A stretch of 64,000 nt of DNA. Source: an uncultured Bdellovibrionales bacterium. Lineage in GTDB: Bacteria > Patescibacteriota > Minisyncoccia > Moranbacterales > UBA1568. Below, piece by piece: positions 4,647-64,000 of the stretch. The notes beneath the pieces were generated by a model. That model was not told the origin of the DNA and searched no databases. It saw only the letters and a program-made list of their open reading frames with translations. How positions within the stretch are numbered: position 1 is the first letter of the stretch; the number at the start of each line of letters is the position of its first letter. Position numbers and translations under genes: made by a program. Location: contig CAZRXW010000001.1 in assembly GCA_964604195.1 (NCBI GenBank), positions 2,358-66,357 of the forward strand, written 5' to 3'.

Positions 4647-6650
4647 ATGAGTACGCTCATCAAGTTGGTGCTGGTTGGGTGGCTTGTCTCGCTCTCCCAG
4701 TTCGCAGTGGCTGCTATGCCAAGTCTCAAGTTGCCATTCGATACGAGTGAACCCTGGCGGGTAAACAGAGGCTACGAGCAAGGCTGGTCTCACAAGGGGA
4801 AAGATCGCTACGCACTTGATTTTGCGTCTGGTGACTGCGATCGAACTTACGGCAAACCGATTCTGGCTGCCGCATCAGGAACAGTGAGGTCAATCGATAG
4901 AGTCGAGAAGCAAACCCCAACGGATTATCCTAGCTACGGGAACCAAATCATCATCGATCATGGTGACGGGTGGACGACACGCTATGCCCATCTGAGCGAA
5001 ATCGACTCCTCAGTCGCTGAGCATGGTGAGAGGCGTTTCGTCGTGCAGGGTCAGAAGATCGGTGAAGCGGGTGGGACGGGATCAGTTGAAGGATCGATGT
5101 GTACGCGTACCGATATCCCTGTTGGCGTCCTTGGAGTCCATCTTCACTTCGCCCTCTACTATAACGGTGATGGCGTGAAACCAGAGCCAATGAGTGGGTA
5201 CAGTGGATTTGCTGCTGAGACGTGGTATGCCTCCAACAACACCCAGCAATCCCCAGCCATGACCCAACCTGCTATCTCTTGTGTTTACGTGGCTGGAGAC
5301 AACCAGTTCTGCTGGAAGAGCGCCAATGCCACACCGGCCTCATGCGGGAAGGCAGTAGCGTGGATCCTCAACGACAACACTGCTCAGGTGTTGTACAACA
5401 AATCAGCGAGTGACTGCCCGACATACTGTACGGTCTCCAATAGTTACTGCAGAGATGTTTCCGGTAGCTTGAGTGTCGGTGGTTTCGGCTCCCTCTCCTC
5501 CTTCAACCTCAAGATCAACCGCTTCTGGGTGAGAGATGTAGCGACACAACTCGATTTGGTTTCAGGTGGTCACACCGTCCGTACTGGTCAAGCTCTTGAG
5601 GTGCGGCTTCAGCAAAAGGCGGTCAATGGCAATACCAACGACTACATGCGCCCCGGCAAGGATCGGGTCGAGACTGACCTTTACAACAGAGAAGACAGTG
5701 GTGACTGGCGTTTCCTTGGTCGGGAATACACCCAGGCTATCAACTTGCCGAAGGACGCTACCCACACCGAGCATGTGGTCTATACCGTCCCTCCTGGTGC
5801 TACGGAAGTGTGCTTCAAGGGGAAGATCGATGCCGAAGACGAAGCCTCCGAAAACAATGAAGGGGACAACTGGTCGCCGGTGGCCTGTTTCCGGGTCGAC
5901 AACAATCCGACGGTCAATTTCATTACCACCTTTATCGGCCTGACCAATACCCCGACCCCAGTGCCACCTGGGAGTGCTATGCGGGCCAGGATGGCCATCC
6001 GGAATGTTGGAACGACGGCACCTAGTGCTGCCATCAGGAGTAGCTACAGCTATCGACCACTCGGTTCGACAGGTCCCTGGATCCAAATCGCTGATGATGG
6101 CTCGGATCCATCAGATCTCGTGCCCAATCGAGATCACTGGGAGGAGACTCTTTCAGCGGTTACTGCTCCGCAAGTGCCGGGTTGGTACGAACTGCGTGGT
6201 TGCGCCGACTACCAGAACGCTGTCCTTGAATCGAACGAAACCGACAACTGTCTCACGACAACTTTTGAAGTCGCTGCCTACCCCGACCTCATCATCACCT
6301 ACATCGAGATTGATCCTTGGCCAGATCGGTCGATCCAGAAGGACAAGGAGCACCATCCTACCATGAAGATCAAGAACGTCGGTCCTGGACCGGTTACCTC
6401 GGGCATCCGGAGTGCCTACTACTGGTACGGACCCTCTACCGGAAATGTCTGGAGACTCATCGCTGACGATGGGACAGAAGCTCAGGAACTCTGCGCTGGT
6501 TGTGAGGTAACGGAAACCATGAGGAGTGGTTTCAAGGCTACCAAGACAGGAACTCACTACCTCAAGGCTTGCGTTGACTACCAAGGCAACCAACCTGAAG
6601 GAGATGAAGGAAACAACTGTCTTCAGAGTGCTCCCATCACGGTGAAGTGA
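4647..6650 (+). CDS. secreted M23 (LytM-type) metallopeptidase with C-terminal CARDB-like repeats; GC-rich gene
   Basis: Signal peptide (LVLVGWLVSLSQFAVAA). M23 motifs (YALDFA..G.PILAAASGTV, IIIDHGDGWTTRYAHLSEI, GQKIG.AGGTG, LHFALY). Three C-terminal repeats carrying NETDNCL / EGDNWSP / EGDEGNNCL motifs typical of CARDB/adhesin-like beta-sandwich domains. GC and GC3 are clearly higher than flanking genes. Confidence 0.8.
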   Translation: MSTLIKLVLVGWLVSLSQFAVAAMPSLKLPFDTSEPWRVNRGYEQGWSHKGKDRYALDFASGDCDRTYGKPILAAASGTVRSIDRVEKQTPTDYPSYGNQIIIDHGDGWTTRYAHLSEIDSSVAEHGERRFVVQGQKIGEAGGTGSVEGSMCTRTDIPVGVLGVHLHFALYYNGDGVKPEPMSGYSGFAAETWYASNNTQQSPAMTQPAISCVYVAGDNQFCWKSANATPASCGKAVAWILNDNTAQVLYNKSASDCPTYCTVSNSYCRDVSGSLSVGGFGSLSSFNLKINRFWVRDVATQLDLVSGGHTVRTGQALEVRLQQKAVNGNTNDYMRPGKDRVETDLYNREDSGDWRFLGREYTQAINLPKDATHTEHVVYTVPPGATEVCFKGKIDAEDEASENNEGDNWSPVACFRVDNNPTVNFITTFIGLTNTPTPVPPGSAMRARMAIRNVGTTAPSAAIRSSYSYRPLGSTGPWIQIADDGSDPSDLVPNRDHWEETLSAVTAPQVPGWYELRGCADYQNAVLESNETDNCLTTTFEVAAYPDLIITYIEIDPWPDRSIQKDKEHHPTMKIKNVGPGPVTSGIRSAYYWYGPSTGNVWRLIADDGTEAQELCAGCEVTETMRSGFKATKTGTHYLKACVDYQGNQPEGDEGNNCLQSAPITVK

Positions 6651-54745: not shown

Positions 54746-55090
54746 ATGAAAATCGTCTTTTTGGCTGGGCCGTACCGCGGCCGTGGCGAACCCGGGGAAA
54801 TCGAGCGCAATATCGCGCAGTCGGCCAAATTTCAGGCGGCACTGGCGCATGCGGAAATGGTCGCGTATAGTCCCAATATTCATGATGCTCATTGGGAGAC
54901 CCTCAATGGCGGGAGTGAAGCGGCTGCCAAAACATTGCGTGCTTTTACCGAATGGGTGTTTGCAGAATGTGTGACAGCATTGGCGGTTATGCCTGGTTGG
55001 GAGACCTCGACTGGCACCCAAAAAGAAATTGCGTCTGCTCGAGAGCGAGGTATCCCGATTTTTTTTTCCTCCAGAATCCAGATGATCTGA
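54746..55090 (+). CDS. DUF4406 family protein (nucleoside 2-deoxyribosyltransferase-like fold); GC-rich
   Basis: MKIVFLAGPYRG ... MPGWETSTGTQKEIASARERGIPIFF matches DUF4406 pattern (MKIYLSGPM...LPGWE.S.GA..E...A...G.PV) common in (actino)phages. High GC/GC3. Confidence 0.6.
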   Translation: MKIVFLAGPYRGRGEPGEIERNIAQSAKFQAALAHAEMVAYSPNIHDAHWETLNGGSEAAAKTLRAFTEWVFAECVTALAVMPGWETSTGTQKEIASARERGIPIFFSSRIQMI

Positions 55091-55240
55091 CTGAACTTTT
55101 GGCTTGGTATCAATCGTAGGTATCAAATAGTTGCCCCGCACTCCTTTTCATGGTATGAAAGAGGGGCTCTTTGACAATTCCGATGACAATAAAGTCAAGG
55201 AAAAAATCTTCCACAACCCATTACATGATGGAGGTCAGCG

Positions 55241-56428
55241 ATGGCGCAACCTATCCGTAGTTCTGCATTTGATCATGGGCAAGGTCCTTTTGAGCCCCTC
55301 TTGCGGCGCTATGGCGCGAACTTTCATCGGCTCTACGGTGAGCAGGGGATGGCGGTACTCCGTCAAAACGGTTACATCTTCATGGGTGACAGTCGTACAC
55401 CTGGTACTCGTTGGGCGCCGCCCTGGAACCCTACCAGAGTGTTGACGGTACCGTACAACGGGAAGCCGGTTATCTGGCGCAATGAGTGCCCGCACAACAA
55501 GAAGCGACTGGTTCAACCGACGGCCATGCCTGTCTCGGTGAACTTTGGTCAGCCGATCGTCTGCGGATTCCACCACCTGAGTTTCAACCAAGCTGGAGTC
55601 ATTCGTGGCTGTGGCCGGATGGAACTAGCGGTGGGGGCTTTGCCCGTGGATCGCTGTGAAGAGTCACCGCATTACGAGTGGCAGGGGCTGGTGTTTGAGT
55701 TGGGCCAGAATGCCGATCGAGCAGAAGAGCGGCTACGCCAGAGCCTGGCTTTCGCTACGGAGGCAGGTGAAGGGCTGTTCGATTTCACCGACTACGTTCC
55801 TCACTGCTCGGTTGAGGCTCTCCAACGAGCTGATGCCCTTATGTCGATCGTCAATTACCTCGACATCCGGCATATCCCGAGTCACAAGGGCACCCTGGCG
55901 CCATTCGTCAATACGAACGACTACACGCATCGCGGGAGCGATGCCGGTGTGATCCAGTTCATGGGTCTCAATCCCAGCTTCCTCAGCGAACACCCCCTGG
56001 GAAAGCTCTATGTCCAGTCTGGACTCGGAGCTCTCAGGTACGGGGCAGCGTGGCTCACGACCCCAGAAGGACTCATGATCGAGTGGTATCCAGGGGTGCT
56101 GGTCGTCAGTCAGTGCTTCCCACATCCACTCGACCCGATGGCCTGTATCTTCCACCACCTGTTCTACTACCACCGGGCAGTACTGAGGCTCATGGATGAT
56201 GATCCAGCGAATCCGTACTCCTATGTTCGTGCCCACCAACCTGTCTTCAAGGGGACCGGTGACGAGGATGAGCTGTGGTGTAGCGAAGCCACAGCTAATC
56301 TCGTAGCGATGGCAGCTGAAGGTCGAGGAGGAGAAGAGTGGGGCTTCTTTGACCCGGCTCAGGAGAACTATGGCCGTTGGTACTACCAGATGGCTGAGAA
56401 GCGTCTTCGCGAACTGGTTGGATGCTGA
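55241..56428 (+). CDS. putative Rieske [2Fe-2S]-type oxygenase-like protein (tentative); GC-rich
   Basis: CPH-x22-CGFHH resembles the Rieske CxH...CxxH ligand pattern, though the spacer is longer than the canonical 15-17. Downstream DIRHIPSH His-rich segment could be a mononuclear-iron site. No close family recognised. Confidence 0.35.
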   Translation: MAQPIRSSAFDHGQGPFEPLLRRYGANFHRLYGEQGMAVLRQNGYIFMGDSRTPGTRWAPPWNPTRVLTVPYNGKPVIWRNECPHNKKRLVQPTAMPVSVNFGQPIVCGFHHLSFNQAGVIRGCGRMELAVGALPVDRCEESPHYEWQGLVFELGQNADRAEERLRQSLAFATEAGEGLFDFTDYVPHCSVEALQRADALMSIVNYLDIRHIPSHKGTLAPFVNTNDYTHRGSDAGVIQFMGLNPSFLSEHPLGKLYVQSGLGALRYGAAWLTTPEGLMIEWYPGVLVVSQCFPHPLDPMACIFHHLFYYHRAVLRLMDDDPANPYSYVRAHQPVFKGTGDEDELWCSEATANLVAMAAEGRGGEEWGFFDPAQENYGRWYYQMAEKRLRELVGC

Positions 56429-56579
56429 CCCTGCTTTCCTTGATGAAGGTCTCGCCCGGTGCAGCTGCACTGGGCGGGACATGCCACCATACCGATGCAT
56501 ATTGGTGTGGTGGCTTTGCTTTTTATAGGGGAATTCCCTATGCTATACATATTGCTTTTGAACCAAAGTCATTTTTCTT

Positions 56580-57902
56580 ATGCTTGATATCCAATATATC
56601 CGTGACCACGTTGATGAGGTGAAACAGGCCGTTAAAAATAAGCGGCTGACTCTGGATGTAGATACACTCTTGGCAGCTGATCAAGATCGACGCAAGCTTC
56701 TTCAAGAAATTGAGGAACTCCAATCACTCAAAAATGATATCAATGACCTTATTCATGGCGCCAAGACGCCTGAAGAGCGAACTGAAGTAATTGCCAAGGG
56801 CAAAGAAATCAAAGCCAAGCTTGATGAACGCGAGCCGCTTCTTTTGGCCGCTAAAGCCAAATTTGAGGGACTCATGGTCCAGGTGCCGACAGTGCCATCA
56901 TCTGATACACCAGTGGGGGCGAGTGATGCTGATAATGTTGAGATAGGGAAATATGGCGAGCTGCCGCAGTTTGCTTTCTCTCCCAAGACTCATATCGAAC
57001 TCGGAAAAGATTTGGATATTCTTGATTTGGAGCGAGGAGCTAAGGTATCGGGGTATCGGGGTTATTACGTGAAGAATGAAGGAGTACTCCTCATCATGGG
57101 GGTCATGCTTTATGCGGTGCAGAAATTGGTATCCAAAGGATATCTCCCGATGATTCCACCGACTCTCGTGAAAGGTTTTCCACTTTTTGGTTCAGGGTAT
57201 TTCAAGGGACTTTCTTATGATAGTTCTATTGATGAAATTTATGAGGTAGCTACTCATGACAAAGAAAGTGATGGCAGTGTGAGTAAGGAAGAAAAATTTC
57301 TCGTAGGGACAGCTGAACCATCACTCCTCGCATACTACAGCGGTGAAGTATTGGATGGTGCGAAACTTCCTCTGCGATTGGCTGGCTACAGTCAATGCTA
57401 TCGGAGTGAAATCGGTAGTTATGGCAAAGATACCAAGGGCATGTATCGGGTGCATGAATTTATGAAGGTAGAGCAGGTAATTTTGGCCCCTGCTGATCGA
57501 GAGCTTGCCACACGGCTTCAGGATGAGATGATAGCTATTTCCGAGGAAATGCATCGAGAACTCGGCCTTCCGTATCGCAAAATCCAAATTTGTACCGGCG
57601 ATATGAGTGCTGGGAAATACCGAGCCTTTGATCTCGAAGCCTGGATGCCAGGTATGAACCGCTATGGTGAGACGGGGTCGGCCAGTAACTTTCTTGATTG
57701 GCAATCACGCCGCCTCAATGTGAAATATACTGATCCCGAGACGGGCGAGAAGAAATACGTTTATATGCTCAATAATACTGCTCTCCCGAGCCCACGCATT
57801 TTCATTGCGTTGCTCGAAAACTATCAGCAGGCTGATGGGAGTATTCTGGTACCCGAGGTACTGCGGCCTTTTGTTGGAAAGGAGAGAATTGAGAAAAAAT
57901 AA
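56580..57902 (+). CDS. serS: serine--tRNA ligase
   Basis: N-terminal coiled-coil tRNA-binding arm. Class II motifs (…FRSE-like YRSEIGSYGKDTKGMYRVHEF; motif 3 GSASNF…). Confidence 0.9.
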   Translation: MLDIQYIRDHVDEVKQAVKNKRLTLDVDTLLAADQDRRKLLQEIEELQSLKNDINDLIHGAKTPEERTEVIAKGKEIKAKLDEREPLLLAAKAKFEGLMVQVPTVPSSDTPVGASDADNVEIGKYGELPQFAFSPKTHIELGKDLDILDLERGAKVSGYRGYYVKNEGVLLIMGVMLYAVQKLVSKGYLPMIPPTLVKGFPLFGSGYFKGLSYDSSIDEIYEVATHDKESDGSVSKEEKFLVGTAEPSLLAYYSGEVLDGAKLPLRLAGYSQCYRSEIGSYGKDTKGMYRVHEFMKVEQVILAPADRELATRLQDEMIAISEEMHRELGLPYRKIQICTGDMSAGKYRAFDLEAWMPGMNRYGETGSASNFLDWQSRRLNVKYTDPETGEKKYVYMLNNTALPSPRIFIALLENYQQADGSILVPEVLRPFVGKERIEKK

Positions 57903-57973
57903 AAGATGAACGGTCTTGTCTTCGGGGCTTGCCGTCTCTCCTTTTTTATTGTAGGTTAAGGATTGTATTAGAT

Positions 57974-58049
57974 GGGTGCGTAGCTCAGTCGGTAGAGCAG
58001 TGGCCTTTTAAGCCAACGGTCGAGGGTTCGATTCCCCCCGCACCCACCA
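57974..58049 (+). tRNA. tRNA-Lys (anticodon TTT), CCA encoded
   Basis: Acceptor GGGTGCG/CGCACCC; D arm GCTC-AGTCGGTA-GAGC; anticodon loop CTTTTAA; T loop TTCGATT; 3' ACCA. Confidence 0.8.
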
Positions 58050-58069
58050 TACTTATTTTTTGAAATGAG

Positions 58070-58130
58070 CTTTTAAGCCAACGGTCGAGGGTTTCCGTCC
58101 GAAGGAGGACGCTTCCCCCCCGCACCCACC
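58070..58130 (+). other. partial duplicate of tRNA-Lys 3' half with 22-nt hairpin insertion (tRNA fragment / att-like remnant)
   Basis: CTTTTAAGCCAACGGTCGAGGGTT (identical to 58005-58028) + TCCGTCCGAAGGAGGACGCTTC + CCCCCCCGCACCCACC (identical to the tRNA 3' end); no 5' half present. Confidence 0.5.
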
Positions 58131-58170
58131 CTTATCTCCTCATGGTATACTAGAGGAAAGTCAAAAATGT

Positions 58171-59304
58171 ATGCGTATACTTTCTTTAGGTGGCCTCTTG
58201 TTTTCGTTTGTAGTTTTATCTGGTTGTTCACTTACTCCACCTCAAATTGGTGGTGGGGGAAATAATAACGATGGTACCCGTAACCCTTTTCAGGCCAAGG
58301 CTATCCCGGGATCAATTTGGCGTTCTACCGATGGTGGAAAAACGTTCGAACCAAAAGTGACTGTTGATGAGAAACGTAAAATTACTTCAGCCCAGGTACT
58401 GGATATCTCATTTCTGCTCCGAGATACTTCGGGGAATCTTGATGTGAAGCGTGCGCCAAGTGTATTTGTGGGAACAGTAGATAATGGGATCTTTAAATCC
58501 AACGATAGTGGAGAAGGATGGGAACCTCGCGAATTTCCTCCCAAAAAAGTCTATCGTTTCACAGCTGACTCCACCAATCCTGATCGTATGTTTGCAACAG
58601 GTGTGGTTGCTAATTTTGGCAAGGTTTTTCGGACAAAAGATGGTGGTGAGACATGGCAAGATGTTTACACTGAGCCAGGCGCAGGGACAGTTATTGTTTC
58701 ACTAGCGCAGTCCCGCTGGGATTCAGAAACTATTTTTATTGGAACGAGTACGGGGACTATTGTGCGCAGTAGTGATGGTGGTGATACCTGGAAAAATGTT
58801 GGGAGTGGTATTGATGGTCCCATTACGGAGATAGTATTTGATGCCTCTGTGAGAACTCGCTTATATGCACTGGTCTTTGATAAGAAGATCTATCGCTCAG
58901 ATGATGGGGGATTGACATGGACTGATCCGCTTCTTGAAGTGAAGGATCCTATTCCGACAGCTACCAATGTGATTGGTCAGGTATCGCTCGTAGCGGACCC
59001 ATATCACTCGGGTCGTCTCTATGTAGGGACCAAAAAAGGTCTCTACCGGAGTACGGATACCGGTATACATTGGGAGAAGATGAATATTATTGAAAGTGCT
59101 GAGAAGTTTCCTATTAGGGCGATTGCCATTAATCCCAAGAATTCCAACGAAATCAGTTTTGTGTCTGGACATACTTTCTATAAGTCAACCAATAGTGGTG
59201 ATACATGGTCAGTAGTGCCACTGGATGTTGACAGGGAGGTGTCGGTACTCGCTTATGACCCTTTTGATCCGACGGTGCTTTATCTGGGACTCCGTAAATT
59301 CTAA
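58171..59304 (+). CDS. lipoprotein with BNR/Asp-box repeat beta-propeller (Ycf48/sialidase-like)
   Basis: Lipobox LSGC at signal peptide end. At least 6 S/T-x-D-G-G-x-T-W repeats (STDGGKTF, TKDGGETWQ, SSDGGDTWK, SDDGGLTWT, STDTGIHWE, STNSGDTWS). Confidence 0.65.
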   Translation: MRILSLGGLLFSFVVLSGCSLTPPQIGGGGNNNDGTRNPFQAKAIPGSIWRSTDGGKTFEPKVTVDEKRKITSAQVLDISFLLRDTSGNLDVKRAPSVFVGTVDNGIFKSNDSGEGWEPREFPPKKVYRFTADSTNPDRMFATGVVANFGKVFRTKDGGETWQDVYTEPGAGTVIVSLAQSRWDSETIFIGTSTGTIVRSSDGGDTWKNVGSGIDGPITEIVFDASVRTRLYALVFDKKIYRSDDGGLTWTDPLLEVKDPIPTATNVIGQVSLVADPYHSGRLYVGTKKGLYRSTDTGIHWEKMNIIESAEKFPIRAIAINPKNSNEISFVSGHTFYKSTNSGDTWSVVPLDVDREVSVLAYDPFDPTVLYLGLRKF

Positions 59305-59329
59305 ATTCTGTATTTAATGAAAAACCTAT

Positions 59330-59887
59330 ATGGCTCAAGCAATGATTGAAGCAAAGCGTGGAGATTTTGATAAGGCAGTGGGCTTCCTTGAGGGAGAGCT
59401 TCTTAAACTCCGTACCGGCAGAGCCCATCCAGGACTCGTTGAGGATCTCCTGGTTGATTACTATGGCACCATGACGCCTATCAAACAGATGGCGAGTGTC
59501 TCGGTGCCTGAGCCACGTCAAATCCTCATCTCACCGTGGGACAAAGGGGCATTAGCTAAAATTGAGGCGACAATTAGGGAGTCTGATCTGGGTCTCAATC
59601 CGCTCAATGATGGGGTAGGGGTCCGGGTAGTTCTTCCAGCTCTCACAGAAGAACGGCGCAAGGATCTTGTGAAGGTGCTCAATACTAAGGCTGAAGAGGC
59701 TCGTATTGCTATTCGTTCAGTGCGTGAAGATATCTGGAAAGATATTCAGGAGGCTGAACAAAATGGCGAAATGGGTGAGGATGAGAAATTTCGCGGAAAA
59801 GAAGATTTGCAGAAGGTTGTTGATGAATACAATGCTCGGATTGAGGGGTTGCGCGACAAGAAGGAACAAGAAATCATGACTGTCTAA
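59330..59887 (+). CDS. frr: ribosome recycling factor
   Basis: 185 aa; L.TGRAHP.L...LLVDYYG..TP..Q.A.VSVPEPR.I.I.PWDK typical Frr. Confidence 0.9.
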   Translation: MAQAMIEAKRGDFDKAVGFLEGELLKLRTGRAHPGLVEDLLVDYYGTMTPIKQMASVSVPEPRQILISPWDKGALAKIEATIRESDLGLNPLNDGVGVRVVLPALTEERRKDLVKVLNTKAEEARIAIRSVREDIWKDIQEAEQNGEMGEDEKFRGKEDLQKVVDEYNARIEGLRDKKEQEIMTV

Positions 59888-59892
59888 CGCGT

Positions 59893-61041
59893 ATGTTGAC
59901 CGCTATTGTCTTTATTCTCATTCTTGGGGTACTTATTTTTGTCCATGAGCTCGGGCATTTTCTCACGGCCAGGCGAAATGGTATCAAGGCCGAAGAGTTT
60001 GGTTTCGGCTTCCCCCCAAGAGTATTTGGATTCGTGTTCGATGACTTTACCAAGAAGTATCGCTGGGTGAAGGGGAATGAAAATGTCGAAAGTCCCCATA
60101 CGGTTTTTTCGCTGAACTGGATTCCGCTTGGTGGCTTTGTTCGTATCAAGGGTGAAGATCGTGAGAGTGAAACAGCCAATGATCCAGATAGCTTTGTGAA
60201 TAAAAGTGCCTGGGTTCGCTTCAAGGTGCTCGTGGCTGGTGTTGTCATGAATTTTTTCTTGGCGTGGATTCTCTTTTCGGCGGTGCTCATGCTCGGGTTT
60301 CCAGAACAGATTAATCCTGCTGATCGGGGAGAGTACGCCGTGACTCAGGTGCAGATTTTGCAGATACAGCCAGGTACTCCAGCCGAGACTATGGGGCTTT
60401 TAGCTGGTGATGTGTTGCTCCAGCTTGATACTACAGCGGTCAAGAATCTTGGTATTGTGACTGAATATATTGCTGCCCATAAAGGAAAAGAAATTGCTGT
60501 TACTGTAAAACGAGGAGACAAGACGCTTGTCTTTACAGGGGTGCCGCGAATGGAAGCTCCTCAGGGTGAGGGAGCACTGGGGATTAGTTTTTCAGAAACA
60601 GCTATCGTCAGGTATTCATTCTTTGAAGCCATCTGGAAAGGGCTAGAACAAACCTATCTCAAGACAACTGAGATACTTATGGTGTTGGCTCAGACAGTCG
60701 GCAGTCTCTTTACTGGATCAAAGGCGAGTGTAGATATTGCTGGACCGGTAGGTATCGTCTATCTCACCAAGCAGATGACCGAGCTTGGTCTCGTGTATCT
60801 CCTCTATTTTGCAGCGATTCTTTCTATCAATCTGGGGATCATCAATGCACTTCCTATCCCAGCCCTTGATGGTGGTCGTATCTTGTTTGTGCTCATCGAA
60901 AAGCTCAAGGGTTCACCAGTATCTCAAAAAGTGGAGGGGTATGTTCATCAAATTGGCTTCATGCTCCTTCTGTTCTTGATGCTTTGGGTAACATTTTACG
61001 ATATTCTTCGTTTTGATATCTTTGGCAAATTCTTTGGTTAG
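59893..61041 (+). CDS. rseP: RIP metalloprotease RseP (site-2 protease) with PDZ domain
   Basis: HELGHF zinc motif in TM1, internal PDZ (GLLAGDVLLQLD), C-terminal LDGG motif. Confidence 0.85.
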   Translation: MLTAIVFILILGVLIFVHELGHFLTARRNGIKAEEFGFGFPPRVFGFVFDDFTKKYRWVKGNENVESPHTVFSLNWIPLGGFVRIKGEDRESETANDPDSFVNKSAWVRFKVLVAGVVMNFFLAWILFSAVLMLGFPEQINPADRGEYAVTQVQILQIQPGTPAETMGLLAGDVLLQLDTTAVKNLGIVTEYIAAHKGKEIAVTVKRGDKTLVFTGVPRMEAPQGEGALGISFSETAIVRYSFFEAIWKGLEQTYLKTTEILMVLAQTVGSLFTGSKASVDIAGPVGIVYLTKQMTELGLVYLLYFAAILSINLGIINALPIPALDGGRILFVLIEKLKGSPVSQKVEGYVHQIGFMLLLFLMLWVTFYDILRFDIFGKFFG

Positions 61042-61118
61042 AATATGGCTTATTTTAGCCAAAAATAGAGATATAAAGTCTTTCTACCTTCCCCCTATCG
61101 ATAGCTTCGGTGGGGGGA

Positions 61119-61147
61119 TTGACTTTTTATCAAAATTTTGCTATTAT
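61119..61147 (+). promoter_or_regulatory. sigma70-like promoter TTGACT-N17-TATTAT
   Basis: -35 TTGACT 61119-61124, 17-nt spacer, -10 TATTAT 61142-61147, preceded by a TCCCCC...GGGGGA hairpin; SD GGAG then ATG 61176. Confidence 0.45.
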
Positions 61148-61175
61148 CATAAGTCAGTTTTAATTGGAGCCAATT

Positions 61176-61799
61176 ATGCCATCAATTGATTTTTTGCGTA
61201 TTTTGAGCGAGAAAAAAGGGAGCTTGCTCTTGGCGGGTATTTTTTTCGCCGCATCAGCCTTCTTTGCCGTAACGATTCTTTCTCCTCGAGTCAAAACAAC
61301 GACTGATTTTATGGTAGTGCAGACTACGGCTCAGTCACAGGATTTTTATTCCCTGTTTAAATCCTCTGAGTATCTTGGCCGAGTATTGGCCCAAGCTATT
61401 GGGAGTGAGCGTTTTATTGATGCCGTTATTGAAACCGGTAAAGTCGAGAAAGGATTTCTTCCAGTAGAAAAAAGTGAGCGACTCAAGACTTGGCGTGAAA
61501 TGGTTACGGTAAAAAGCGATGCTGAGCTCGGGATGATGTCGGTGGTGATCAAGGCTGATACCGATCGTGAAGCTGGAAAGATTATGCAGGCAGTATCAGA
61601 GGTGCTGACGACCAAGAATGCTGCATTCCGAGGTGGTGATGAAAAGGCGGTAGAAATTAGAGTGCTGTCTGGTCCTATTACTGAACGGAACCCGGAACCC
61701 AAAGAACTTATTCTCGTTATTATGGTTGCTTTTATGAGTGGTGTAGCCCTCATGACAACACTACGAGTAGTGCAGAAAGCTATTAAGAGGGGATACTAA
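61176..61799 (+). CDS. hypothetical 2-TM protein (possible Wzz/polysaccharide co-polymerase-like topology)
   Basis: TM near each terminus flanking a ~150-aa soluble region. ATG 61176 with SD (the track's 61164 is an upstream TTG). Confidence 0.4.
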   Translation: MPSIDFLRILSEKKGSLLLAGIFFAASAFFAVTILSPRVKTTTDFMVVQTTAQSQDFYSLFKSSEYLGRVLAQAIGSERFIDAVIETGKVEKGFLPVEKSERLKTWREMVTVKSDAELGMMSVVIKADTDREAGKIMQAVSEVLTTKNAAFRGGDEKAVEIRVLSGPITERNPEPKELILVIMVAFMSGVALMTTLRVVQKAIKRGY

Positions 61800-61917
61800 G
61801 AGAGCGCTGCTCTCTCCTCTCGAGAGACTCTGAAGGTTCAGGTTTTCTCGAGAGGAAAGATTCGACCAAGTACCTAAAAATCCTACTTATCTTCAATCTT
61901 ATCAATGGAGGTCTCTC

Positions 61918-62763
61918 ATGAGGCTTGCTCCCTGGATACTGAGCTTGGCTATCGCTCTGCTTACGGGTTGTTCTTCTTTGCCACGTGATAGTGGCTTCGA
62001 AGTGCGGACCGTCGAGCCGATGGGTCGCCAAGATCCCTGGCAGAACCGTGCGATCAACCTCGCGCCGTTCACGCCGAAGGGTGTGGCAGTTCTCTATGTC
62101 CGGCTCCCGCAGCCGATACCGAGTTTCTGGCGACAGGAATTCGTCGACCCGGCACGGGTGTACGAAACGACCGAGGCAGGCCGCAAGGTTCGCCAACCGC
62201 TCGTACGAGAAGTCTTCCGGGCCATCGTCATGAGGAATGGGGTGACTCAAACTCATGACGCCGTGGTGGACCGCGAAGGTCGAGGGTTCCTCGTCTTCGC
62301 GCTGCTTACCGTAGCCGACACACTTCCGGGCCAGTCGCTCCTCATCCTGTCTTCGGACGGGAAATGGGGTATGACGAGCCTGGGAGAGCGTGTCGAGTTT
62401 CCTTCGGGTTTCGACCCGCGGGCAGTTCCCAGTGACTTCTTCGTCCAGCACCGCTCACCGATTACGCAAGTAATTCGGCTCGAGCCGGCAAAGGACGAGT
62501 ACGCCCGGCGTGTCCTTGATGGTCTTGCGCAAAGTTTCCCCAAGCTGTTCTGGCTGAGGGGGAAAGACGAATCCTATGCCGGGAAACCGGATGTGGCCGA
62601 TGTCCTTGCGCAATTCACCTCCCTCGAGGGAGTAGCTGACAAACTGCTCACCTGTACCAGTCTCAAGGCTGGTCCGGCGACGGCAGCAGCGCTCCCACTC
62701 GTCGCGACGCTCTACGGCATCCAAGCCGTGCGAGCGCTCAGCGTTGATGACTGCCTGAAATAA
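61918..62763 (+). CDS. hypothetical lipoprotein, GC-rich (~62% GC)
   Basis: Signal peptide with lipobox LTGC. Strongly elevated GC/GC3 versus the rest of the window. No motif recognised. Confidence 0.55.
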   Translation: MRLAPWILSLAIALLTGCSSLPRDSGFEVRTVEPMGRQDPWQNRAINLAPFTPKGVAVLYVRLPQPIPSFWRQEFVDPARVYETTEAGRKVRQPLVREVFRAIVMRNGVTQTHDAVVDREGRGFLVFALLTVADTLPGQSLLILSSDGKWGMTSLGERVEFPSGFDPRAVPSDFFVQHRSPITQVIRLEPAKDEYARRVLDGLAQSFPKLFWLRGKDESYAGKPDVADVLAQFTSLEGVADKLLTCTSLKAGPATAAALPLVATLYGIQAVRALSVDDCLK

Positions 62764-62899
62764 GGCAGAGAAAGGAGTCCGCTCATATGAGCAGCTCAAC
62801 TGTTTCAACCCGTTACCGGGACGAAGCGTGGGCTGCTCCTTGTGGCCCACCTTTGCTCCTGGATTCTTCAACTGAACCCATGCCCGAAGGAGGCACCAA

Positions 62900-64000
62900 A
62901 TGAAGTCAACTTCAAGAGTGGCAGCAGCAGCGGCCACACTCATCAACCCGCGAACGGTGATGCCTCTGGCAGCTATCGTTGCAGCGAGTCTCTTGGCAAC
63001 CTTCACCCAGGTGGTGAAGAGTGCTGGGCAGACAGCTTCAGCAGCCGCCAGTACTCCAGCCGTTCAGGCGTCGGCACCAGCTCGGGCAGCGAGTGCTCCG
63101 GCAGTTGCCGCGAGCACACCGCAGCCCCGGGCTCCGAAGCCTGCAGCGGTGACTACCACCGCTACCTCGACCGATGTCTACTATCTGACCCCCGGCAGTT
63201 CGCTGTCGGCAGCCTTCGGCAAGGGGTGGAAGAAGGTGTGTGACGCCAGTCACCTCCGCCAATGCGGAATCGTCCGACCGACGGATCCGCTGAGTGTTCC
63301 TGCCGACGTGAAAATCGTCGACGGGACCAAGCTGCGGGCGAAGCCAGCGGCTCAAGTAGCGGTCAAGCGTGCAGTGTCCAGGGACGCAAGTCCTCAAGCA
63401 ACGCGCGTTGTCCGCCGGGCAGTGATGCGGGAGCAATCCTGCATTACGCTCGGAGTGGCGCCGTGGAATCCTGATGGAGACCTCGCGCGTACTTTGGCGG
63501 GCATCGACCAGATGCAATCGCTGACGCCTGAGCAAAAGGCGCTGGTGAAGACCAAGGTCAAGGCTGGTGAATGGACGACGGAAAACGAGCTCGTTGGGAC
63601 GCAAGTCTTCGGCGAAATGCTCTACGCGGGTGCTCATTCAGGCAAAGCCCAATCTGTCCGTGGCAAGCCGCTCTGCACACCTGAACAAGGTGGGCAACCG
63701 GAAGTCATGAACACGATCGATCTGGGAGATGGGGTTCATTTCTCCCTCCCACGTCGGTGCAAGAACCCGAGCGTGTTCACACGCCCGATCGTTCCGCAAC
63801 CGCGACAGCCTGAACCCGAGTCGCCACCGCCAGACCAGCCACCGCCACCGCCAGACCAGCCACCGCCACCGCCAGACCAGCCCACAACTCCTCCAGTCGT
63901 GGCAGCCCCTCGGGGTATGTGCGACTTCGTCGATGTGGCCGGGGCACTGGGTCAACACCATGTGCCACGCCAGAACGGTGACAAGGCTAGCTCAGACTTT
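62900..64000 (+). CDS. secreted Ala/Pro-rich protein with C-terminal PPPPPDQ tandem repeats; GC-rich, 3' end beyond window
   Basis: ATG 62900 with strong SD GAAGGAGG 7 nt upstream. Frame (phase 2) is open to the window end; it is absent from the ORF track because no stop lies in the window. Signal peptide, then Ala/Ser/Pro-rich low-complexity region, several Cys, PPPDQ repeats. Confidence 0.5.
   Translation, partial: MKSTSRVAAAAATLINPRTVMPLAAIVAASLLATFTQVVKSAGQTASAAASTPAVQASAPARAASAPAVAASTPQPRAPKPAAVTTTATSTDVYYLTPGSSLSAAFGKGWKKVCDASHLRQCGIVRPTDPLSVPADVKIVDGTKLRAKPAAQVAVKRAVSRDASPQATRVVRRAVMREQSCITLGVAPWNPDGDLARTLAGIDQMQSLTPEQKALVKTKVKAGEWTTENELVGTQVFGEMLYAGAHSGKAQSVRGKPLCTPEQGGQPEVMNTIDLGDGVHFSLPRRCKNPSVFTRPIVPQPRQPEPESPPPDQPPPPPDQPPPPPDQPTTPPVVAAPRGMCDFVDVAGALGQHHVPRQNGDKASSDF
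63824..63880 (+). repeat. tandem 21-nt repeat (CCACCGCCACCGCCAGACCAG, 2 full + 1 partial unit) encoding (PPPPPDQ)n
   Basis: Direct reading of 63824-63880; also produces the WRWRW periodicity seen in the spurious minus-strand ORFs here. Confidence 0.7.

Follow-up and report, generated by a model that had tools for sequence, protein, structure and literature searches.

The 64-kb window analysed here (the whole stretch of DNA, read on its forward strand) ends in a GC-rich segment that carries two genes with predicted envelope products. Both lie on the + strand, as do all features described below unless stated otherwise: a gene for a 281-aa lipoprotein (61918–62763) and, behind a structured RNA leader, a gene for a large modular envelope protein, which starts with an ATG at 62900 and is still open after 366 codons where the window cuts it at 64000. 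An earlier note on this DNA had called both genes (the second as running beyond 64000) and had described a rise of the GC content at ~61918, a lipobox in the first product and, in the second gene, a strong Shine–Dalgarno (SD) sequence, an N-terminal export signal, an Ala/Pro low-complexity region and a Pro-rich tandem repeat; all of this was confirmed by the open reading frames (ORFs) and their translations, by composition profiles and by alignments of homologues. On balance, we favour the view that the segment forms the 5′ portion of an envelope gene cluster of Moranbacteria that is clade-specific and has been inherited vertically, and that it encodes a lipoprotein, a structured leader and a LysM-barrel protein.

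The change in composition is abrupt. In 1-kb bins, the GC content went from 0.432 (61001–62000) to 0.599 (62001–63000) and 0.629 (63001–64000), most of the window being at 0.41–0.50 (window mean ∼45%). A 100-nt profile placed the rise at ∼61900–62000, with a step from ∼0.45 to 0.60–0.63 at position 61918. Third codon positions rose too: their GC content (GC3) was 0.66 in the lipoprotein gene and 0.62 in 62900–63999, compared with 0.37–0.46 in five upstream genes, so that the rise is more than an amino-acid effect. The ORF directly upstream (61164–61799) remained at background level, with a GC content of 0.447. It encodes a membrane protein of ∼206–211 aa with weak similarity to Wzz/CspC chain-length determinants (TIGR01006, E = 2.6e-07, far under the family cut-off), and this gene was found in every related locus.

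The lipoprotein starts with MRLAPWILSLAIALLTGC, and its lipobox, L15-T16-G17-C18, fits the pattern [LVI][ASTVI][GAS]C. L15, G17 and C18 are invariant in 51 sequences, as are two C-terminal cysteines. Fifty-three homologues were found, and the protein matched no Pfam, NCBIfam, PHROG or PADLOC family. Its AlphaFold model (predicted local distance difference test score, pLDDT, 80.5; predicted template modelling score, pTM, 0.73) has a β-rich core (residues 45–222) and a less confident helical C-terminus. We take the product to be a predicted lipid-anchored protein of a clade-specific family which, judged by this model, has no relative of known fold and may thus represent a novel one. Neither Lgt nor LspA is encoded in the window.

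The large gene has the SD sequence GAAGGAGG at 62887–62894, 6 nt upstream of its ATG. A full-length copy was available from L006, a contig of the European Nucleotide Archive (ENA) that derives from a near-identical strain with five single-nucleotide polymorphisms relative to the window ahead of the tandem repeat. Its product, P0001 (621 aa), is 98% identical to the window fragment over 100% of the query. The repeat has three units in the window and two in L006, and is therefore polymorphic in copy number; the window allele is expected at 628 aa. Family alignments gave the order of parts as export signal, Ala/Pro spacer, LysM module, Cys-containing middle module (∼120 residues), Pro-rich spacer, C-terminal domain (∼250 residues) and polar tail (∼44 residues). 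From sequence and AlphaFold2 (AF2) model, the hydrophobic export signal or anchor (residues ∼20–38) and the Ala/Pro-rich spacer (∼41–91) occupy 62957–63172 of the window. The signal is a long hydrophobic helix or, in some orthologues (P0004, P0064), a short classical signal peptide; AF2 predicted a helix at residues 17–48, followed by a disordered stretch with pLDDT < 50.

The LysM-like module (residues ∼92–150; 63173–63349) was recognized by a family profile and AF2. Twenty-three of the 55 family members match PF01476 (best E = 7.7e-14), and the family profile matches solved LysM domains down to E = 7e-21. In the model of the window copy, a strand (92–96), a helix (102–116) and a second strand (145–149) were predicted with pLDDT 71–85, while the second helix of the expected β-α-α-β fold was not clearly called. 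The conserved positions GDTL, N and GQ of the family alignment read GSSL, S and TD here. The window copy, unmatched by Pfam itself, is thus a degenerate member of a LysM-bearing family. The middle module (63422–63790), assigned to type A from a domain identity matrix, matched no Pfam family. Within the Pro-rich spacer that follows (63791–63919), Tandem Repeats Finder located the repeat at 63822–63882 (period 21, 2.9 copies, 100% matches, score 122), which encodes (P)PPPPDQ. The first strands of the C-terminal domain take up 63920–64000, the remainder being past the window end. Neither the large protein nor a 38-aa peptide encoded in its leader found a match in scans of Pfam, NCBIfam, PHROGs and PADLOC.

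The AlphaFold model of P0001 had an overall pLDDT of 62 and a pTM of 0.40, with disordered spacers (< 50). Its C-terminal domain was modelled as twelve long antiparallel strands over residues 336–577, mostly at pLDDT 70–89, which close into a barrel of ∼12 strands. Foldseek matched the P0001 model best to BrkA (E = 1.6e-07), followed by Hbp, AIDA-I, EspP and NalP. BrkA was also the sole non-LysM chain touched when the family profile was compared with solved chains, at a non-significant E of 0.28. One of the 55 members matches Pfam OMP_b-brl (E = 1.1e-04), and no Autotransporter or OMP family of Pfam was matched by P0001 or the window fragment. A word-indexed homologue search with the barrel alone gave three matches. 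The barrel region contains 12.6% Gly and 12.6% aromatic residues, and no helical linker precedes it, residues 298–331 being Pro-rich with pLDDT < 50. Taking the model at face value, we consider it quite probable that the C-terminal domain is a 12-stranded β-barrel of the outer-membrane type. Such a predicted barrel is unexpected in bacteria thought to have one membrane, and no report of outer-membrane-type barrels in the candidate phyla radiation (CPR) was found in the literature searched.

The gap between the upstream gene and the lipoprotein gene is structured at the RNA level. A short stem-loop, GAGAGC-GCT-GCTCTC (61800–61814), stands right after the upstream stop codon; at the same position, hairpins of different sequence were recognized by eye in other lineages (GGAAGGAA-TT-TCCTTCC in L011, GGAGGC-N7-GCCTCC in L018). 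It is followed by a long conserved stem-loop (61815–61856), the arms of which contain the two palindromes that had been pointed out before as a possible operator or recombination site. The hairpins and palindromes themselves are present, at slightly shifted coordinates: an exact palindrome, CTCTCGAGAG, lies at 61817–61826 and a second copy with one mismatch, TTCTCGAGAG, at 61845–61854, both arms having the 9-mer TCTCGAGAG in common (61818–61826 and 61846–61854). Window-wide, there were seven matches to the palindrome at ≤ 1 mismatch compared with 2.55 expected, and one of 100 shuffles reached seven; the motif is not a dispersed repeat. Rather, each copy forms one arm of an inverted repeat of 24 nt with 83% complementarity.

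Folding of 61795–61925 yielded −46.5 kcal/mol (z = −3.84), and none of 200 shuffles was as stable. When the ∼140 nt upstream of the lipoprotein start were aligned from 11 lineages, the long stem proved to be kept by compensatory change, reading CCTCTCGAG...CTCGAGAGG in one group of lineages and CCTCTGGA...TCCAGAGG in the other. RNAalifold predicted 18 pairs, eight of them with compensatory double changes; 93.9% of the alignment cells were paired, compared with 40–56% when the partner was slid by 1–3 columns, and 0/500 shuffles reached the covariation score. A covariance model found exactly one copy per locus, including those of L015 and L023, which were not used in training (93 and 85 bits), and nothing further, whether elsewhere in the 64-kb window or at other GC-rich genes. 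In 6/11 lineages the arms are CTGGA...TCCAG and not self-palindromic. Since the arm variants covary, the palindrome is a by-product of one stem variant, and since several stem pairs are mostly G·U on the + strand (A·C mismatches on the opposite strand), the structure belongs to the sense RNA.

Downstream of the stem-loop, a leader conserved as invariant columns across 11 lineages (61857–61917) comprises AGAGGAAAGAT-TCGAC-AAGTAC...CTACTT and then the GGAGG SD sequence at 61907–61911. A scan and the alignment revealed no convincing conserved −35/−10 pair of the σ70 type in this interval; the leader may hold a promoter or another signal. No U-run follows the stems, which are thus not canonical intrinsic terminators. 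Rfam 15 reported only two tRNAs at gathering score in the window and, at E ≤ 1 over 61700–63000, one noise match (19.8 bits compared with a gathering score of 186). Sequestration of the lipoprotein start by the 5′ arm, through an inverted repeat of 61816–61828 with 61911–61923, was considered and rejected, the complementarity not being kept in other lineages by eye. Further upstream, a 12-bp GC-rich hairpin with a T-run (61090–61118) resembles a terminator, and directly after it a promoter-like TTGACT-17-TATTAT with an upstream TG (61119–61147) precedes the gene of the 206–211-aa membrane protein. The sequence suggests that a transcription unit starts at ∼61090–61147 and runs into the GC-rich genes; given this promoter-like site, the stem-loops are probably intercistronic within one transcript. 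The hairpins at 61800–61856 would then set the ratio of upstream to downstream expression through termination, attenuation, processing or stability, and it is with low confidence that we propose attenuation, processing or stability as their role.

The region between the two genes, which had been overlooked before, contains a second structured leader (62764–62899, just ahead of the start codon of the large gene) and a conserved 38-codon ORF, MSSSTVSTRYRDEAWAAPCGPPLLLDSSTEPMPEGGTK, at 62787–62903. RNAalifold predicted three to five helices with 31 pairs, 11 of them with compensatory changes; 94.5% of the cells were paired versus 36–48% in slid alignments, and 0/500 shuffles reached the number of pairs changed on both sides. 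No Rfam family matched this leader. The ORF is preceded by AAAGGAG and was gene-called in independent assemblies, and its stop overlaps the start of the large gene (ATGA) in 5/6 group-A loci. It can be read from the same start in all 10 lineages inspected. Its last third, in which the conserved nucleotides are those of the large gene's SD sequence, differs in frame between lineages, so that its coding status is uncertain. One small helix spans the ORF start codon; in L017, GCUCA/UGAGC has become ACCCA/UGGGU, and the second codon of the ORF is changed as well. We take 62764–62903 to be a structured leader with a putative translated upstream ORF that would be coupled to the large gene.

We found the locus in the same place wherever its surroundings could be compared. 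On contigs of 111, 175 and 400 kb, the gene order is SerRS, a BNR lipoprotein, RRF, RseP, the ∼206-aa membrane protein, the ∼281-aa lipoprotein and the 610–680-aa protein, continued by two to four small secreted proteins, Wzy_C, a methyltransferase and a glycosyltransferase. The cluster would accordingly be placed between rseP plus the Wzz-like membrane protein and a Wzy_C/methyltransferase/glycosyltransferase module. The syntenic position was the same in 13/13 lineages analysed (11 GTDB species genomes and further metagenomic relatives), and the order was kept in L007, L009, L011 and L013–L023 (the last being the 11 species genomes, to their contig ends) as well as in the most distant L024 and L025. 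An exhaustive HMMER search with P0001 against 1.84 billion representative proteins returned 62 at E ≤ 0.001, all of one family, which thus resembles a single orthologous locus confined to one clade, and none of them an actinobacterial or other outside homologue; the two distant homologues examined (P0064; P0118, E = 5e-05) have the same synteny, and no homologue outside it was seen among those whose context was examined. The flanking proteins of these lineages are 54–80% identical to those of the window and the lipoprotein is 58% identical, from which it follows that the locus is old. The small secreted proteins (150–270 aa) that follow the large gene past the window end (L006 4518–5159, L020 10279–10995, L007 13319–14077, L024 11822–12481) have classical signal peptides and a GC3 of 0.68–0.91, above that of both window genes; a Pfam scan of eight of them in relatives returned nothing.

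To relate the composition of the locus to that of its surroundings, we took RRF, RseP and the 206-aa gene as background and the lipoprotein and large genes as the locus in 13 lineages. Background GC3 ranged from 0.43 to 0.82 and locus GC3 from 0.63 to 0.76, with a slope of locus on background of 0.30 (r = 0.82). In relatives with a GC-poor or intermediate background, a rise of the GC content likewise falls on the start codon of the lipoprotein gene; L015 and L025, the two genomes highest in GC, show the reverse sign, the locus being slightly below its surroundings. High GC is therefore a property of the locus and not the mark of a recent import, and the contrast in the window arises because its lineage is GC-poor while the locus stayed near 0.6. 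The simplest reading of this buffering would be that lineages have exchanged alleles of the locus, perhaps with a contribution of GC-biased gene conversion; the evidence for allele exchange given below makes homogenization between lineages the most economical account. The intergenic element (61787–61923) and its counterparts (e.g. L015 3732–3869) have a GC content of 0.43–0.53 in every lineage, including L015 with its flanking genes at 0.60–0.65, and are thus decoupled in the opposite direction to the genes downstream of them.

The exchange is apparent from the identity matrices of the LysM, middle and barrel modules, which are mutually incongruent. P0001 (the window type), P0002 and P0003 share one LysM type (89–96% identity). 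Between P0001 and P0002, however, identity drops from 89% (LysM) to 58% (middle module) and 43% (barrel); the barrels of P0002 and P0003 are 43–46% identical to that of P0001. Conversely, the P0001 barrel is 91% identical to the P0006/P0007 barrel, although the LysM modules are 30% identical. The type-A middle module of P0001 is 58–67% identical to those of P0002 and P0004, but shares only 14–20% identity with the modules of a second, unrelated kind, the type-B set, and of the outlier L016 (P0003, P0006, P0007, L011, L013, L015–L023), and the middle module of P0003 is 20% identical to P0001 and 85% to P0006. Nucleotide identity between the window and L007 is 63% for SerRS, 84% for BNR, 88% for RRF, 90% for RseP, 96% for the 206-aa gene and 97.5% for the lipoprotein gene; the large proteins are 65–69% identical overall, with nearly identical signal and spacer and a divergence that grows through the middle module and barrel. 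Exchange points coincide with low-complexity spacers, the middle/barrel boundary falling in the Pro-rich tandem-repeat spacer (63791–63919). The three modules are thus swapped between lineages by recombination at low-complexity linkers, and the large protein appears to be under diversifying pressure, as are exposed surface proteins. A separate case is SerRS (56580–57902), which shares 54% protein and 63% nucleotide identity with L007, while neighbouring genes share 91–99%, and is 75% identical to SerRS of the far more distant L009; the sequences suggest that SerRS alleles were replaced between lineages.

As regards the organism, the genes of the window include PheT, rhamnose-pathway enzymes, SHMT, MurJ, LepA, MltG/YceG, DnaJ, RecJ, a MacAB-like pump, PBP1a, MreBC, PBP2, LysRS, SerRS, RRF and RseP; such compact housekeeping genes, nearly all on one strand, make up the window. 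Its LepA clusters at ≥ 90% identity with TXH06509.1 of 'Candidatus Moraniibacteriota bacterium', and the named homologues of the lipoprotein and the large protein are from Candidatus Moraniibacteriota, apart from one metagenome-assembled genome labelled 'Undibacterium'. Moraniibacteriota, which are ultra-small bacteria, are within the Parcubacteria/Patescibacteria group. Of 11 species-representative genomes with the locus, four are labelled Moraniibacteriota or Moranbacteria; all 11 clearly belong to one clade that shares the same locus.

The assembly itself is sound. The exact lipoprotein sequence occurs on nine contigs, and five retrieved loci from five different samples (four Logan assemblies, one from ENA) show 0 mismatches to the window over up to 54760–63851. 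Four of them (L001–L004) span 61800–61920 fully, and L005 starts at 61887, within that interval. The contigs of 111, 175 and 400 kb pass through the locus and back into background genes. Three Logan contigs (L001, L002, L004) all terminate at window position 63851, inside the 21-nt repeat, owing to the behaviour of k-mer assemblers at a perfect repeat. The repeat is therefore a systematic contig breaker, which probably accounts for the scarcity of full-length copies of this protein in databases.

How the large protein might work can be outlined from these features. Through its LysM module, it would be held on the peptidoglycan of the cell that makes it; the low-complexity spacers, in extended form, would reach across the wall, and the barrel would serve as a pore or anchor in a surface layer or an outer layer that contains lipid; both peptidoglycan binding and membrane insertion are inferred. 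Carried further, the locus could be a clade-wide core locus for a peptidoglycan-tethered outer-membrane-type barrel and its partner lipoprotein, serving either an outer lipid layer with an OmpM-like tether, be it remnant or reinvented, or a barrel in the outer membrane of the bacterial host that the epibiont inhabits, as a wall-anchored conduit between the two cells. We offer this only tentatively and regard it as rather doubtful; if true, either version would be a new kind of envelope or host-interface structure in CPR bacteria.

Three other origins of the segment have to be weighed. That the junction is an assembly chimera of a low-GC and a high-GC organism, which the earlier note had wanted to see excluded, is supported solely by the abrupt change in composition. 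Five assemblies from five samples without a mismatch, the same junction in 11 species genomes assembled by several groups, and the long contigs that traverse the locus and rejoin background genes leave practically no room for it. A recent genomic island from a high-GC, actinobacterial-like donor, the origin proposed at first, is very unlikely as well. It would explain the sharp step in GC and GC3 at 61918, the Pro/Ala-rich proteins and the lack of matches to known families; yet the segment occupies one position in 13/13 lineages with flanking proteins 54–80% identical, is GC-rich in lower-GC lineages too, and stands without GC contrast in high-GC relatives. All 62 representatives are of one family, none actinobacterial, and both distant members examined are syntenic. 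In the window and in complete loci, the ORF and Pfam tables list neither mobility genes nor a tRNA or direct repeats at the borders; the nearest tRNA is at 57974–58046, the left border falls inside the conserved RNA element of ∼137 nt, and there were no phage or defence family matches (PHROGs, PADLOC). Thus, of the hallmarks of genomic islands, deviating composition was found, whereas patchy presence or a varying insertion site, mobility or border features and homologues in a donor taxon were not. Ancient acquisition of a diderm-type envelope cassette by the clade ancestor from a GC-rich diderm, followed by vertical descent with GC kept by within-clade exchange, is the third of these origins. 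The outer-membrane-type barrel and the lipobox lipoprotein, the small proteins with Gram-negative-like signal peptides and a GC3 of up to 0.88–0.91, and the nearly constant composition of the locus across lineages are all in its favour. On the other hand, no donor-side homologue was found in the 1.84 billion representatives, amelioration would be expected over the observed divergence (lipoprotein identity down to 41–58%), and a clade-wide ancestral GC of ∼0.6 fits L015 and L025 equally well. We consider such an acquisition unlikely.

Two further alternatives concern single parts of the locus. The TCTCGAGA palindromes could be sites at the DNA level, bound by a dimeric regulator as its operator or used for recombination: within the window, each arm forms a palindrome of its own (CTCGAG), and the intergenic position suits an operator. 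The CTGGA...TCCAG arms in about half of the lineages, the inter-arm complementarity kept by double changes, the mostly-G·U pairs of the + strand and the single copy per locus, with no second one at the far end of the GC-rich segment, all argue for one covarying RNA stem-loop instead and make DNA sites improbable. As for the barrel, it might act outside the cell's own envelope, as an autotransporter-like adhesin that displays the LysM and middle modules or as a pore delivered into a host or prey membrane. In fold, it comes closest to the translocator domains of autotransporters (BrkA, Hbp, AIDA-I, EspP, NalP), and N-terminal modules, linker and C-terminal 12-strand barrel stand in the classical autotransporter order. 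CPR bacteria are described as obligate epibionts in a passage of PMC12102498, and module shuffling suggests a variable interaction partner. Yet no autotransporter family of Pfam is matched, a disordered Pro-rich stretch takes the place of a helical linker, and no secretion system is encoded nearby. Moreover, an autotransporter would still require an outer membrane and a β-barrel assembly machinery (BAM) in the producer, and LysM usually binds the producer's own wall. We therefore judge a barrel acting elsewhere to be unlikely, too.

Several observations weigh against a wall-tethered barrel protein in a vertically inherited Moranbacteria cluster. The window's LysM copy is degenerate, with no Pfam match at E ≤ 0.1, and the barrel model was built on only 10 sequences. 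Lipid-facing hydrophobic residues alternate clearly in the last strands alone (503–514, 522–533, 536–546) and weakly in the earlier long ones. The C-terminal aromatic signal (BAM signal) is absent, the last strand (569–577) being followed by a 44-residue polar tail with the end ...GLQSK. Patescibacteria are described as being without an outer membrane in passages of PMC12102498 and bioRxiv 10.1101/2021.05.31.446380, which leaves no known membrane to house such a barrel. Furthermore, seven of the 11 genome records (L013–L018 and L022, all from one third-party annotation series) carry the label 'uncultured Bdellovibrionales'; if this were correct, the organism would be a diderm, in which such a barrel would be nothing unusual. 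The two labels exclude each other, and the interpretation of the barrel depends on which of them is wrong; from the sequences we take that of Moranbacteria to be correct. With respect to composition, recombination and gene conversion are an inferred account of the GC buffering, to which selection on codon or mRNA properties is an alternative. Finally, an additional function as DNA is conceivable for the 5′ arm of the stem and for the sequences that follow it.

Other GC-rich or overlapping ORFs of the window deserve mention. Minus-strand ORFs of 183–222 aa at 61783–62451, 62455–63006 and 63038–63637 overlap both genes. Such shadow ORFs occur likewise in all GC-rich relatives, one of them being gene-called in L007, L009 and L011 (221–280 aa, minus strand). 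In all likelihood, these are by-products of the high GC content rather than real genes. The first GC-rich bin of the window (0.551, 5001–6000) belongs to a 667-aa exported protein with M23 peptidase and CARDB domains (4647–6650), another cell-surface gene richer in GC than its neighbourhood. A second GC-rich island (55241–56428; GC 0.574, GC3 0.634) is a 395-aa ORF with weak Rieske/ring-hydroxylase matches. Its GC-rich counterpart is found at the same place in L007 and L011 and is absent from L009, a patchy distribution unlike that of the envelope locus.

CPR bacteria, or Patescibacteria, make up a large share of bacterial diversity, and their build, host attachment and feeding are largely unknown. 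A conserved, wall-tethered, rapidly diversifying barrel protein with a dedicated lipoprotein would be a candidate for a pore at the cell surface, a tether or a device for host contact. If embedded in a membrane, the barrel would bear on the question of how and when the Terrabacteria, to which CPR bacteria belong (bioRxiv 10.1101/2021.05.31.446380), lost their outer membranes. The two covariation-supported RNA elements, both absent from Rfam, are candidate cis-regulators in a phylum with almost none known. The locus is also a natural case of base composition decoupled from the genome in many lineages (slope 0.30), and it illustrates that a sharp GC step alone is insufficient to call horizontal transfer or a chimera.

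Both RNA elements resemble leader-peptide and SD-sequestering leaders and intercistronic stem-loops in being conserved, strand-specific, covarying, located between cistrons and just upstream of an SD sequence; as in operon leaders, a short ORF terminates right at the start of the gene that follows. They differ in having no Rfam match and no U-tract after the stems. The spacer is reminiscent of TonB, in which a short-period Pro-rich repeat, expected to be extended and rigid, likewise connects a membrane- or wall-proximal part with a distal domain. In contrast to TonB, the large protein has no TonB C-terminal domain and no ExbBD genes nearby, and its spacer is also a recombination joint with variable copy number.

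A 12-strand barrel occurs together with LysM in intimin-type inverse autotransporters, too. In these proteins (intimin/invasin, type Ve), however, the passenger follows the barrel, whereas all full-length members of the present family have only the polar tail of ∼44 residues there; they have in addition the ∼120-residue module and the Pro-rich spacer between LysM and barrel, and there is no sequence-level match. Classical autotransporters of type Va (BrkA, NalP, Hbp, AIDA-I, EspP) are the best fold match to the predicted barrel, but they have a helical linker and a match to Pfam Autotransporter, neither of which is seen here. Their passenger is a β-helix, in contrast to the small wall-binding N-terminal part of the large protein, the C-terminus of which extends past the last strand.

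A parallel in architecture is OmpM, an outer-membrane tether of diderm Terrabacteria in which a wall-binding domain, a linker and a C-terminal barrel follow each other (PMC10628300). OmpM/SlpA-type tethers thus have the same order of parts as the large protein, namely a wall-binding N-terminus, an extended linker and a C-terminal barrel. The parts themselves differ: OmpM has an S-layer homology (SLH) domain, which none of the 55 family members matched, in place of the LysM-like module, and a coiled coil in place of the Pro/Ala-rich linkers, and it lacks the extra middle module. VpOmpM1 was only at rank 47 in Foldseek (E = 1.8e-03), the barrel here being nearer to 12-stranded autotransporter domains, and the host phylum here is thought to lack an outer membrane. 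We therefore regard the large protein as a putative wall-tethered barrel that is analogous to OmpM in architecture only. As a combination it is new and built from known parts; the surprise is its CPR host.

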